A DNA stretch of 64,000 nucleotides, from NCBI GenBank assembly GCA_001783145.1, contig MFQT01000017.1, positions 30,119 through 94,118 of the forward strand, read 5' to 3'. The position numbers were made by a program, and so were the translations under genes. The DNA comes from Candidatus Magasanikbacteria bacterium RIFOXYB2_FULL_38_10 (GTDB lineage Bacteria; Patescibacteriota; Patescibacteriia; Magasanikbacterales; UBA10003). The notes below the pieces were generated by a model that had not been told where the DNA came from, did not search any database, and worked only from the letters and a program-made list of their open reading frames with translations. Positions 4,378 to 6,366 of the stretch are shown in pieces (position 1 is the first letter of the stretch; the number at the start of each line of letters is the position of its first letter).

Positions 4378-4456
4378 GTCACTAGTGTTTAAAAAAACTG
4401 ACAAAAAATTTTAATTGATTTTTTACCAAAAAGTTTCACCCACTAGCATACACCTC

Positions 4457-4485
4457 TTGACAAAATCTGTCAAATGTGCTATGAT
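4457..4485 (+). promoter_or_regulatory. consensus sigma70 promoter with extended -10 (TTGACA - 17 nt - TGcTATGAT) driving the high-GC ORF
   Basis: TTGACA at 4457-4462, a 17-nt spacer, TGn extended -10 at 4477-4479 and TATGAT at 4480-4485. The -35 overlaps a TTGACAaaatcTGTCAA palindrome. Confidence 0.65.
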
Positions 4486-4676
4486 ATGTAGTTAATTTGA
4501 TCTTTGATAATAGGGTGAAGGCTTTGTCCAACCAGATAAGTTTGGCTAAATTAAGGCAAAAATAAAGAAAATAAGATTAAATTTGTCCTAAATAAGCTTG
4601 ATTTATCCGGTTGGGCGAAGGTTTTCGCCCTCTCGAGGAAGGCTCCCCTTAAGGAGCTGTTTGGTAGGAGGTTCCT

Positions 4677-6155
4677 ATGGAACTCGTTCGTCAGTTCTTC
4701 GCGGCCCTGGTGTCCATGACGGACACGGCCATCGCGGCCGTGTTCCAGAGCCTGGAGCAGGAGAACGTGCTGACCAGCGCGCGTCTGCGCGCCGCGGTCA
4801 AGAAGAGCGAGGGTAACGAGTTCCGGCGCCTCAAGGTGGCTCTGGGCTATGCCGTGGACCACCAGCTCACCCTCTCCATCGCGAACATCCCGTTCATGAC
4901 GGACGAGGAGCTGGTGCTGGCGTTCCTGGAGGCCACGCCCGACCAGCGCGCCGAGTTCGTGGTGGCGCTGGACGAGATCACCGACGAGAGCGGTGTGCGC
5001 GGTCAGCAGGTGCTCTCCTCCGTGCAGGAGCGCCTCAACATCGAGAAGGCCGTGGCGCAACGCCAGGCCGAGGAGGAGCGTCTGGAGCGCGAGCTGGCCA
5101 AGAAGGCCGCCAGGCGCCTGGAGCTCCTGGAGCACACGGATCGCCTGATCCTGCACATCCTGCGGACCGGCGACGCCTGCGATATGACCGACGAATTGGC
5201 GGTCCAGTACATAGAGGATCAGCCCCTGGGCTACTTCAAGGTGCTCTCGGACATCGCCGGGCTCATCACCCCCGCCACCGCGGCGGAGGGCGAGGCGGCC
5301 CTGACCGGCCTGGACGCGCTGCGCGGCGGCACCATCGTGGACATGCTCACGGGCGCCACCCTGGCGGTGAAGGACGCGCGGAGCATCCGGGGTTGCTTCA
5401 TCACCGACGAGGAGGGCGCCAAGCGCCTCGTCAAGAAGCTCCCGAAGAAGGAGGGGGGAAGGGAGATCTACAGGCACCTGACGGGCGAGAGCCCCGAGGG
5501 TGTCCTGGAACGCCTGGACAGGCACGACGCGGAGTACGCGGCGCGCCAGAAGCGCGACGAGGCCTTCGTGGCCGAGGTGAAGAAGGCGATCGGCGAGGCC
5601 GACGCCACCTTCGTGGCCCTGGCCAAGGCGGTGGCCGAGCTGGTGGAGATCAACTCCGTCGGGACCAGCGGGCCCGAGGAGTGGAAGATGCGGATCATCC
5701 GCGACATCTCCGGCGAGTTCGGCGAGTTCCTGCGGCGGTCCTACATCGGCCAGTTGCGCCAGGCCTACCCCGACGCCTCGACGATCCCGGCGCTCAACGC
5801 CCGGATCGAGGAGGTCAAGGCGGCCTGGAACCAGGCGCGCGCGACGGGCGCCCCCTCCTACGAGCAGGATGCCATCCTCAAGGAGGTCCACGTCCTGGAG
5901 CGGCACCGGCAGTACCTGTCCGAGGCTCCCCAGCTCAAGCCGCAGCAGGGCAAGCCGACCGTCGGCACCCACGCCCACACCAAGGGCAAGGAGGGTGCCC
6001 CGGTCCTGACCGACCACTCCCGCGACGAGGACAGGGAGCGCAAGGAGCGCGAGCGGCGCGACGCCGACCGGAAGCGCACCCTGGACACCAAGGGCAAGGG
6101 CGGCGGCCAGCCCCAGCTCACGGGCAAGGGCAAGCACCAGAAGGGCAAGAAGTAG
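4677..6155 (+). CDS. hypothetical protein of foreign (high-GC) origin; alpha-helical, acidic/Arg-rich body with Lys/Gly-rich basic C-terminal tail
   Basis: 492-aa ORF preceded by GGAGG 5 nt upstream of the ATG. The composition is completely unlike the flanking genes. It is very GC-rich and nearly every codon ends in G or C, which identifies the plus frame as the coding frame. No motif that I recognise (no P-loop, no HExxH). The C-terminus is KGKGGGQPQLTGKGKHQKGKK. Confidence 0.7.
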   Translation: MELVRQFFAALVSMTDTAIAAVFQSLEQENVLTSARLRAAVKKSEGNEFRRLKVALGYAVDHQLTLSIANIPFMTDEELVLAFLEATPDQRAEFVVALDEITDESGVRGQQVLSSVQERLNIEKAVAQRQAEEERLERELAKKAARRLELLEHTDRLILHILRTGDACDMTDELAVQYIEDQPLGYFKVLSDIAGLITPATAAEGEAALTGLDALRGGTIVDMLTGATLAVKDARSIRGCFITDEEGAKRLVKKLPKKEGGREIYRHLTGESPEGVLERLDRHDAEYAARQKRDEAFVAEVKKAIGEADATFVALAKAVAELVEINSVGTSGPEEWKMRIIRDISGEFGEFLRRSYIGQLRQAYPDASTIPALNARIEEVKAAWNQARATGAPSYEQDAILKEVHVLERHRQYLSEAPQLKPQQGKPTVGTHAHTKGKEGAPVLTDHSRDEDRERKERERRDADRKRTLDTKGKGGGQPQLTGKGKHQKGKK

Positions 6156-6285
6156 CCCAGCTACTTCGGCTCCTCAAGTGCCCCCAGTGTCCCTGGCAAC
6201 ATTAACAACGCGGCGGCCAACTAAATAACCGCCCACAACGTCACATGATCTTTCAACAGGTTACAGAGGGTCGCAACGATCCTTA

Positions 6286-6340
6286 CCGGCAATCAAAGTT
6301 CAGTGCTAACACACTGTTCCCACGATTGCCGGTTTTTTTT
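6286..6340 (+). terminator. intrinsic terminator closing the high-GC cassette
   Basis: Stem ccggcaatc (6286-6294) / gattgccgg (6324-6332) with an inner cagtg/cactg stem, followed by a run of 8 T. Confidence 0.7.
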
Positions 6341-6366
6341 ATTTCTGCTAAAATGAAGTAAGGATT

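Follow-up and report, generated by a model that had tools for sequence, protein, structure and literature searches.

An extremely GC-rich orphan gene in the division and cell wall cluster of an AT-rich Magasanikbacteria genome

The stretch of DNA considered here, hereafter the window, spans 64,000 nucleotides (nt) of contig MFQT01000017.1 (positions 30,119 to 94,118) of Candidatus Magasanikbacteria bacterium RIFOXYB2_FULL_38_10, a member of the Candidate Phyla Radiation (CPR) whose assembly (GCA_001783145.1; G000 below) comprises 854 kb in 20 contigs with a GC content of 39.4%. At positions 4677-6155 it harbors a gene, called X, that is embedded in the division and cell wall (dcw) cluster in the order mraY, ftsW, murG, tRNA-Lys, X, a translin-family gene, a family 2 glycosyltransferase (GT2) gene, a Mur ligase gene, the DivIC gene, a SurA-like gene, ftsE and ftsX. 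Related genomes and loci are designated by G and L numbers, and the contigs of a genome by C numbers.

Gene X and its transcription unit

Between positions 4607 and 6340 the GC content is approximately 70%, against 36.6% for the whole window. At the left border the profile climbs from 0.22 (4551-4600) to 0.56 (4601-4650); values of 0.58-0.80 follow up to 6150, before a drop to 0.24 at 6351-6400. Within the open reading frame (ORF) of X, the GC contents of the first, second and third codon positions (GC1, GC2 and GC3) are 0.69, 0.42 and 0.95. The GC3 values of six neighboring genes lie between 0.31 and 0.43, and the genome median over 671 ORFs of at least 120 codons is 0.346; overall, X has a GC content of 0.69 compared with 0.37 for the window, and hence the atypical composition expected of a recent island. 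The bias pervades codon choice, with 33 AAG and no AAA, 49 GAG and three GAA, and CTG or CTC in 47 of the 49 leucine codons, and the amino acid composition is skewed to Ala, Arg, Gly and Glu. Two stretches escape it, namely the first five codons, three of which end in A or T, and the segment 80-130 nt upstream of the ATG, which lies in the same predicted transcript and has a GC content of only 0.22.

Neither of two artifactual or strand-specific readings of this composition was retained. The minus-strand frame of 528 codons that overlaps X is not considered a gene, as the composition pattern fits the plus-strand frame; it is open because X contains no TTA, CTA or TCA codons, which would be read as antisense stops in the codon-aligned frame. 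Strand-specific editing, or mutagenesis of the type caused by diversity-generating retroelements, was rejected as the source of the GC richness because A and T are depleted alike at the third positions of X; its GC skew is not marked.

X is a predicted autonomous unit of promoter, leader, ORF and terminator that is conserved as a whole in its orthologues (Table 1). The sequence of the putative sigma-70 promoter is kept in nine orthologous loci. It overlaps a divergent promoter-like site for the tRNA-Lys gene, such that the -35 hexamers of the two sites form a palindrome, TTGACA-N5-TGTCAA (within 4445-4485), which is kept in most of the orthologous loci. At the other end, the predicted terminator consists of an outer stem (6285-6294 with 6323-6332), an inner hairpin and a run of eight T residues (6333-6340); a simple terminator scan skipped it, its loop being too long. 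The terminator core, GCAATC/GATTGC, and the 3' untranslated region (UTR) are kept across the family, though the proteins have drifted to approximately 22% identity. Thus, scans and folds bear out most of what the original prediction had proposed for this locus, namely a flip from AT-rich to GC-rich composition, a coding frame of 492 amino acids with codons ending in G or C, an extended -10 promoter, a GGAGG Shine-Dalgarno sequence 5 nt from the ATG, a two-tier terminator hairpin followed by T8, and a self-contained arrangement of these elements around one ORF. No RNA run was listed as containing X, and three small metatranscriptome runs of the source study had next to no sequence words of it, a result that counts neither for nor against expression.

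The predicted leader folds with a minimum free energy of -75.1 kcal/mol (z = -6.8 relative to shuffled controls). Its main elements are a long-range duplex, P1, a local hairpin with alternative pairing, P2, and a GC-rich hairpin, P3; in addition, a small hairpin pairs the AGGAGG of the Shine-Dalgarno region (4666-4671) with the start codon. Judged from folds of single sequences, the MAFFT alignment of the 3' part of the leader being poor, all eight orthologues with a long leader follow the P1-P2-P3 plan although their sequences differ. In these orthologues the 3' arm of P1 terminates in GGYTGGGCGR, and in L036, by exception, the leader is only 42 nt long. A junction motif of the leader, GGYTGGGYR, was discarded, as it is too short for specificity and turns up elsewhere in the genome at unrelated sites only. 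When Rfam 15 was searched with the leader and the 3'UTR, only the tRNA passed, the other matches being sub-threshold look-alikes of microRNA-family hairpins. The near-perfect pairing of the long duplex, together with a local hairpin that competes with it, hints at a role in processing or switching, and the conserved leader of X is a candidate for a new cis-regulatory RNA.

Table 1. Features of the X locus (window coordinates) and genes occupying the equivalent interval in other families of the order (locus coordinates)
Feature	Coordinates	Strand	Description
Degenerate copy of tRNA-Lys 3' end	4225-4255	-	Direct repeat of 4292-4322, 87% identical
tRNA-Lys (UUU)	4302-4377	-	ARAGORN; Rfam tRNA, 68.6 bits; divergent from X
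Promoter-like site of tRNA-Lys	4445-4473	-	TTGACA, 17 nt, TATGCT; 10/12 matches
Predicted promoter of X	4457-4485	+	TTGACA, 17 nt, TATGAT, extended -10 TG; 11/12 matches
Antisense ORF	4551-6137	-	528 amino acids; by-product, not a gene
Predicted leader of X	4492-4676	+	About 185 nt, structured; start placed from the promoter
Leader helix P1	~4501-4639	+	Long-range duplex (fold)
Leader hairpin P2	4613-4630	+	Local, alternative pairing (fold)
Leader hairpin P3	4641-4658	+	GC-rich, just 5' of the Shine-Dalgarno sequence (fold)
Shine-Dalgarno sequence GGAGG	4667-4671	+	5 nt 5' of the ATG of X
Gene X	4677-6155	+	Orphan ORF, 492 amino acids; period-3 pattern GC3 > GC1 > GC2
3'UTR of X	6156-6284	+	About 55% GC; short blocks kept among orthologues
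Predicted two-tier intrinsic terminator of X	6285-6340	+	ACCGGCAATC ... GATTGCCGGT + T run
Promoter-like site of translin-family gene	6326-6354	+	TTGCCG, 17 nt, TAAAAT, with TG; 9/12 matches
Perfect inverted repeat	6366-6391 / 6415-6440	.	26 bp, 23-nt GC-rich loop; leader of translin-family gene
Translin-family gene	6451-7029	+	Pfam PF01997, E = 1.2e-12; ATG at 6451 set by orthologue alignment
Interval gene, G004	L022:2793-4040		415 amino acids, GC3 0.62; own TTGACA promoter-like site and terminator
Interval gene, G011	L023:3794-4657		287 amino acids, GC3 0.75; own TTGACA promoter-like site and terminator
Interval gene, G030	L024:2189-2842		Resembles N-terminal part of PurH; GC3 0.85

The GC richness of X is maintained

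An assembly chimera, in which GC-rich contaminant DNA had been fused to a CPR contig, might account for such a composition, and the original prediction had proposed to look for DNA bridging the two junctions. Many members of the X family do lie on short contigs that stop near the borders of the cassette, and the contig of L040 ends just short of the position where X is expected. Nevertheless, Logan contigs from independent samples and studies span both junctions with zero differences: those of run X1, possibly the source sample, cover 4348-6900; those of run X3, from another groundwater sample and another study, cover 4349-5559 and 5625-6900; those of run X9, a soil metagenome, cover 4526-4736 and 6300-6473; and those of run X5 cover 6224-6477. 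Their depth over the junctions resembles that of the flanks, and they end at the tRNA, which is common to many organisms, not where the composition changes. Moreover, X occupies the same neighborhood in assemblies from six or seven distinct relatives of this organism. The chimera explanation is refuted by these observations, and the chance that it nevertheless holds is negligible.

Contig ends have another consequence. The short-read contigs of relatives, including L040 (JAPLWR010000026.1), L010 (contig C70 of G007), L002 and L035-L038, often break off at the borders of GC-rich cassettes or close to them, and such genes are therefore probably under-represented in metagenome-assembled genomes of CPR bacteria.

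The family of X is small and confined. A word-indexed search of 5.8 billion protein clusters returned three, made up of the query and two relatives at approximately 40% identity, and an exhaustive hmmsearch with a three-sequence profile against 1.84 billion representatives, into which 15 billion proteins had been clustered, found ten proteins in total. No homologue in a GC-rich organism or a donor lineage was present among these representatives, and every member for which DNA was read sits in AT-richer flanks (GC3 of 0.54-0.99 against a flank GC content of 0.27-0.51). The database search suggested by the original prediction thus yielded no relative in a GC-rich context, and nothing supports the actinobacterial or myxobacterial style of donor that it had envisaged, the homologues all belonging to this CPR lineage. 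Pattern scans of genome and metagenome contigs based on the three-sequence alignment confirmed zero further relatives.

X has also retained its position. A profile search of 61 genomes detected it in G001, of the same genus, and in G006, of the same family, and reading of the locus revealed a shorter member of 353 amino acids in G003 that the profile had missed; the profile did not detect X in G002, G004 or G005, of which G002 and G005 also lack a translin match, so that their loci may be unassembled. The order murG, tRNA-Lys, X, translin-family gene is kept in five of the 12 loci read (the window, L001, G001, G003 and G006), and two more keep part of it. In L034, X is followed by an oppositely oriented M28 peptidase gene and then by the translin-family, GT2 and Mur ligase genes, and L041 has a GC-rich block, whose ORFs were not read, at the expected offset from mraY. 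Presence is thus not patchy as would be expected of a recent island. Comparison with close relatives lacking the insert, another check that had been proposed, instead finds X at the same locus in L001, G001, G003 and G006, and the description of the locus as accessory and possibly mobile is not supported, given this conserved order, the absence of any integrase or recombinase ORF between murG and the translin-family gene, and the lack of direct tRNA-end repeats flanking X. In a maximum-likelihood tree, the X proteins of genus g1 (window, G001) and genus g2 (G003, G006) form separate clades with 100/99 support; this tree splits the genera as taxonomy does and therefore fits vertical descent.

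How long the composition has persisted can be gauged from the nearest syntenic relative, L001, by comparing X with ten neighbor genes. The neighbors are 51-89% identical between the two loci, with nonsynonymous divergence (dN) of 0.08-0.39 and synonymous divergence (dS) of 1.2 to more than 2, i.e. saturated. X itself has diverged further (41% identity by BLASTP, 46% over aligned codons, dN of 0.52), yet its GC3 amounts to 0.95 in the window and to 0.99 in L001, whose third positions contain A and T at frequencies that each round to 0.00. Where a residue encoded by four-fold degenerate codons is conserved, the two genes agree in the third base in only 62% of cases, against approximately 50% expected by chance from C and G alone; these sites have therefore undergone repeated substitution and nonetheless remained G or C. 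Composition thus does not decay with divergence, since third positions swap C and G only, in spite of the saturated dS of the neighbors.

The extreme GC content of X is accordingly a feature of the coding sequence under active maintenance, not the residue of a transfer. Given GC3 values of 0.95 and 0.99, saturated synonymous sites next door and turnover restricted to C and G, neutral decay toward the genome composition is excluded, and selection or a fixation bias is acting now. In the X tree, GC3 of at least 0.95 occurs in two separate clades, each with a sister at 0.63-0.79, and therefore the strength of this force varies among lineages. Atypical GC content is routinely taken as a sign of recent transfer, and X is a clear counter-example, a gene with a GC3 of 0.95-0.99 that has remained in place in AT-rich genomes while the synonymous sites of its neighbors became saturated. 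A limited search of the full-text literature turned up no account of resident genes with high GC content in CPR genomes, which does not amount to proof of novelty.

A class of GC3-rich genes and its possible causes

X does not stand alone, as the notion of one accessory locus would have it. Approximately 40 of the 671 ORFs surveyed in G000 have a GC3 above 0.55, the extremes being X and C10:26243-26857 (0.97). A stereotyped promoter and initial transcribed region (TTGACAAAA, N8, AAATGTGCTATAAT, GTT ... GTTCTTTAAA) occurs about 17 times in the genome; 12 of the 17 copies precede ORFs with a GC3 of 0.64-0.95, several of which have long hairpin leaders. X is thus the extreme of a class of some 40 GC3-rich, mostly orphan genes, many of them preceded by this promoter. 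Among nine members scanned against Pfam, seven gave no match below E = 1e-3, the exceptions being a class V aminotransferase and an OmpA/NMT1 protein, and one GC3-rich orphan matches a PHROG membrane protein.

Several further observations concern this class. Near-identical copies of approximately 60 nt of promoter and transcribed start lie before GC3-rich orphans at C2:8839, C3:4505, C3:13049, C3:13092 and C6:489, and others at C10:18287, C10:36867, C11:3427, C16:13021 and C16:110836; they may represent a regulon or a duplicated promoter module, and the leaders at C3:4505 and C6:489 have a long hairpin sequence in common. The only gene as extreme as X, C10:26243-26857 (L119:9244-9858, minus strand), encodes an orphan of 204 amino acids with a Lys/Ala-rich C-terminal tail reminiscent of histone H1, and its sole homologue was found in G002. 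The terminator sequence of X (CCGGCAATCAAAG ... GATTGCCGG + T run) recurs at C10:41694 (minus strand), downstream of C10:41760-43802, which has a GC3 of 0.64 and encodes a membrane-anchored coiled-coil protein of 681 amino acids.

The codon set of the class is nearly the opposite of that of the ribosomal protein genes and EF-Tu. Codon bias of the kind found in highly expressed genes was rejected as the cause of high GC3, because the genes for ribosomal proteins, EF-Tu and EF-G have GC3 values of 0.25-0.40 and favor codons ending in A or T. The 46 tRNAs of the genome include an anticodon starting with C or G in every codon box, and therefore each codon ending in G or C has a cognate tRNA. The expectation that X would be poorly matched to the tRNA pool of its genome is thus right as regards the codons of the ribosomal protein genes and EF-Tu, and not supported as regards the tRNAs themselves.

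On balance, X is probably a resident, fast-evolving and Magasanikbacteria-specific gene that is vertically inherited, without recent import, and whose GC content is held by selection on its transcript or translation. Such selection, the most likely mechanism, would keep the genes of the class on the G/C-ending codon set, which would be read by the tRNAs of the genome with C- or G-starting anticodons. The output of the class might thereby be uncoupled from the bulk translation of A/U-ending codons, or be regulated otherwise. The long leader duplex might serve as a site of post-transcriptional control or of processing, of the type cut by RNase III, and X might be an abundant cytoplasmic protein whose tail binds nucleic acid or membrane. 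Among the mechanisms, selection at the level of transcript or translation is ranked first because the effect is concentrated in the ORF and strongest at third positions, because the GC content drops to 0.22 within the same transcript upstream of the ATG, and because the first five codons are relaxed and the depletion of A and T is symmetric. Biased gene conversion is ranked second, and repeated import is without any donor.

A number of points weigh against this account. The GC3 of the orthologues is widely spread (0.54-0.99), so that the force is not uniform, and GC1, GC2 and the 3'UTR are also GC-elevated, as a regional process such as biased gene conversion predicts. It would be unusual for selection to hold approximately 490 synonymous sites at 95-99% G or C. 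The promoter, the transcription start, the function of the leader and the abundance of the protein are read from sequence alone, and no family or fold match to X was obtained in the libraries and structure searches used. The class also includes C10:36987-38237 (L120:988-2238), an extra paralogue of a SufS-like class V aminotransferase with a GC3 of 0.91; the best matches to it (41-45% identity) come from other families of the order, and those in G001 and G002, of the same genus, are only weak and partial. With no same-genus orthologue, this paralogue may be a true horizontal acquisition, and the GC-rich class as a whole may have begun by transfer. Lastly, unrelated single genes of elevated GC content fill the interval between tRNA-Lys and the translin-family gene in other families of the order (Table 1). 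This interval thus seems to receive GC-rich cassettes repeatedly, and X may therefore have originated by insertion, possibly with exchange of cassettes as well.

Among the alternatives, GC-biased gene conversion, or some other fixation process with a local GC bias, would make X and the other cassettes hot spots of recombination, for instance if diversifying selection favored allelic exchange among strains; homology anchors would be provided by the conserved promoter-leader and terminator, and biased repair would drive both GC content and protein change. The elevation of GC at all three codon positions and in the 3'UTR fits this scheme, as do the dN of X, which is 2.5 to 6 times that of most neighbors, its shift in residue composition, the promoter modules and the terminator common to different cassettes, and the unrelated cassettes at the same site in other families. 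On the other hand, the boundary is sharp, falling to a GC content of 0.22 within the transcript itself, and the X profile has a single match in G000, which leaves no paralogous donor copies. Frequencies of A and T near 0.00 at third positions over 486 codons would demand an extreme bias, to our knowledge far beyond any reported for bacteria. This explanation is therefore judged unlikely, though it deserves to be taken seriously. Repeated replacement of X from an unsampled GC-rich pool (host, phage or plasmid) at the tRNA-Lys site, too recent each time for drift in composition, finds some support in the tRNA-adjacent position, the tRNA-end remnants and the different GC-rich genes in the same interval of G004, G011 and G030. 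Some GC-rich genes of the genome also look foreign, such as the SufS-like paralogue and the Cys-rich repeat proteins at contig ends, and a preprint reports the uptake of RNA of GC-rich hosts by Patescibacteria (10.64898/2026.06.21.733656). Yet the search of 15 billion proteins, as 1.84 billion representatives, gave no homologue in a GC-rich context, the AT-rich promoter, leader and terminator are conserved along with the ORF, the X tree follows the assignment to genera, and neither an integrase nor X-flanking repeats are present, all of which makes repeated import quite improbable.

A different role for the codon set is conceivable if it matches that of a GC-rich host, X being a host-directed effector cassette that is translated with host-derived tRNAs or whose mRNA or protein acts in the host cytoplasm. 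The consensus promoter and Shine-Dalgarno sequence, the hairpins at both ends of the predicted transcript, the codon use opposite to that of housekeeping genes, and the nature of X as a fast-evolving orphan with a basic, disordered C-terminal tail would suit such a cassette, as would host RNA uptake and codon complementarity, both reported in the preprint (10.64898/2026.06.21.733656). However, no signal peptide is evident in X, and the genome has its own tRNAs for all of the codons used. As to type IV secretion, of which X with its basic tail might be a substrate, VirB4 (PF03135) was not found in the genome, VirD4/TraG (PF02534) gave a single weak match of 24 bits, and several PilB-like ATPases are present. 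The support is wholly indirect, and an effector function of this kind is very unlikely. A broader scheme, which must be regarded as rather doubtful, is that Magasanikbacteria keep a selected regulon of self-contained orphan cassettes in the anti-housekeeping codon set, each made up of a consensus promoter of the stereotyped kind, a leader with a long hairpin, an ORF whose GC3 reaches up to 0.99, and a conserved terminator. Given the reported feeding of these organisms on the RNA of GC-rich hosts, translation of the cassettes could be coupled to host contact through host-derived tRNAs, or the codon set could suit mRNAs or proteins with a role in the host; the shared promoter and terminator handles might also permit cassette exchange by homologous recombination.

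The setting of the class lends interest to these possibilities. In the same preprint, a cultivated Patescibacterium is described as taking up and digesting host RNA, the known hosts are GC-rich, and the codon usages of parasite and host are complementary; the A/U-ending codons of housekeeping genes are proposed to avoid translation of the host mRNA taken up (10.64898/2026.06.21.733656). The GC3-rich class thus sits in a phylum whose AT-rich codon usage has newly been tied to feeding on GC-rich host RNA. The housekeeping genes of G000, from the same phylum, likewise rely on A/U-ending codons. In contrast to the genome-wide AT bias treated there, a minority of the organism's own genes has the opposite, host-like codon set, a situation that goes unmentioned in the passages of the preprint that were consulted; this suggests a link to host contact. 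If the force acting on X is selection on translation, the organism would represent a natural cell with two nearly separate codon sets, and its GC3-rich genes would offer an entry to how episymbiotic CPR bacteria regulate lineage-specific genes, possibly those for interactions with a host.

X also invites comparison with several known systems. Phage "morons" are autonomous units of promoter, gene and terminator, of deviant composition, inserted between conserved genes. X resembles them in being a single ORF of sharply different composition with its own predicted sigma-70 promoter and intrinsic terminator, lodged between two genes of a conserved cluster. It differs from them in its chromosomal location with dcw flanks, no phage genes nearby and no PHROG match, in being kept in place across genera, and in a composition that is maintained and does not drift to that of the genome. 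Compositional islands acquired by horizontal transfer drift over time to the composition of their host, a process known as amelioration. Like such islands, X combines atypical GC content and codon usage with a position beside a tRNA gene, but it lacks donor homologues, mobility genes and flanking repeats, and its syntenic orthologues, at 22-46% identity, reach a GC3 of 0.99 while neighbor dS is saturated.

In rare-codon regulons, such as that of bldA and the TTA codon in Streptomyces, one codon at few positions is sufficient to act. The GC3-rich class similarly is a subset of genes that relies on codons rare elsewhere in the genome, but in X essentially all codons are affected and no regulatory tRNA has been identified. 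The vls locus of Borrelia is a GC-rich locus of antigenic variation in an AT-rich genome, tied to gene conversion. X shares with it the local GC richness and fast evolution of a coding locus in an AT-rich genome, whereas G000 has no array of silent cassettes or paralogue of X, and X has no marked GC skew.

The X protein and the surrounding sequences

The X protein is hydrophilic, with an acidic helical body (isoelectric point of 5.4) and a basic Lys/Arg/Gly tail (10.5), an organization found in ten of 11 members (body 5.3-6.6, tail approximately 10-11.6). From this composition it may be guessed that X is soluble and that its tail binds a polyanion, i.e. nucleic acid or membrane. An AlphaFold model computed from an alignment of 13 sequences has a mean predicted local distance difference test score (pLDDT) of 81 and a predicted template modeling score of 0.49. 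From the N-terminus onward it comprises a helical domain, a long charged helix (residues 107-152), a small alpha/beta domain (approximately 172-270) that carries the conserved motifs Cys-Phe-Val/Ile-Thr and Arg-Leu-x-Lys-Lys-Leu, a helical bundle (273-419), a disordered stretch, a basic helix and the Lys/Gly tail. The protein had been predicted to be all-alpha; its helical body and basic tail agree with that description, and the alpha/beta domain of the model does not.

As originally proposed, X has no recognizable motif. Its sole Pfam match, PDCD10_N, scored 15.8 bits, under the cut-off of 19.8 bits, and NCBIfam, PHROGs and PADLOC gave zero matches. With the whole model, the best Foldseek match in the PDB had E = 0.13, template modeling (TM) scores did not exceed 0.18 for clusters of the AlphaFold database or 0.24 for the ESM Atlas, and a wide VIA-align search returned helical hairpins only (Z of at most 8.4). 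A separate model of residues 160-275 (pLDDT of 76.5) gave E of at least 0.74 with Foldseek and Z of at most 3.1 in a wide VIA-align search, both against the PDB, and a feature search of the ESM Atlas with X gave scores of at most 0.84, within noise. Within the scope of these searches, X represents a family without a known fold relative.

On the upstream side, the tRNA gene announced by the original prediction is indeed there. It is 100% identical in L001, and it adjoins X in G001, G003 and G006. The att-like repeat exists too, as the degenerate copy of the tRNA 3' end, but the tRNA gene, of which it lies downstream, separates it from X, and so it does not delimit X. L001 holds a similar tRNA-end remnant. 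In the spacer between the murG terminator and tRNA-Lys (4040-4300), a second stretch resembling a T-arm was noticed near 4078-4110, by visual reading only; the tRNA-like remnants in this spacer could be decayed tRNA duplicates or the scars of old attachment sites.

On the downstream side, the promoter-like site of the translin-family gene overlaps the predicted terminator of X, and its TGCTAAAAT block is kept in L001 and L002. The inverted repeat that follows is perfect, as had been stated, and measures 26 rather than 25 bp. It was considered as a miniature inverted-repeat transposable element and rejected, being unique in the genome; the orthologous loci have shorter, different hairpins at this position (6366-6440).

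The neighbor was correctly assigned to the translin family, since PF01997 matches it with 48.7 bits against a cut-off of 25.9 bits and is covered from end to end. The gene is approximately 70% identical to its orthologues in L001, G001, G003 and G006. With further orthologues in loci such as L021, L032 and L033, it belongs to the conserved content of the dcw cluster in Magasanikbacteria as well as several related families, with 15 of the 31 genomes searched containing it; the translin family is best known from eukaryotes and archaea.

Elsewhere in G000, GC-rich blocks lie at the ends of contigs (C1:1-5047, C11:1-3093 and C15:28301-32800). Those of C1 and C11 encode Cys-rich repeat proteins, and the two ORFs read in C15 are GC-rich and not Cys-rich; mis-binning, chimeric ends or genuine transfer from a GC-rich organism might each explain these blocks.

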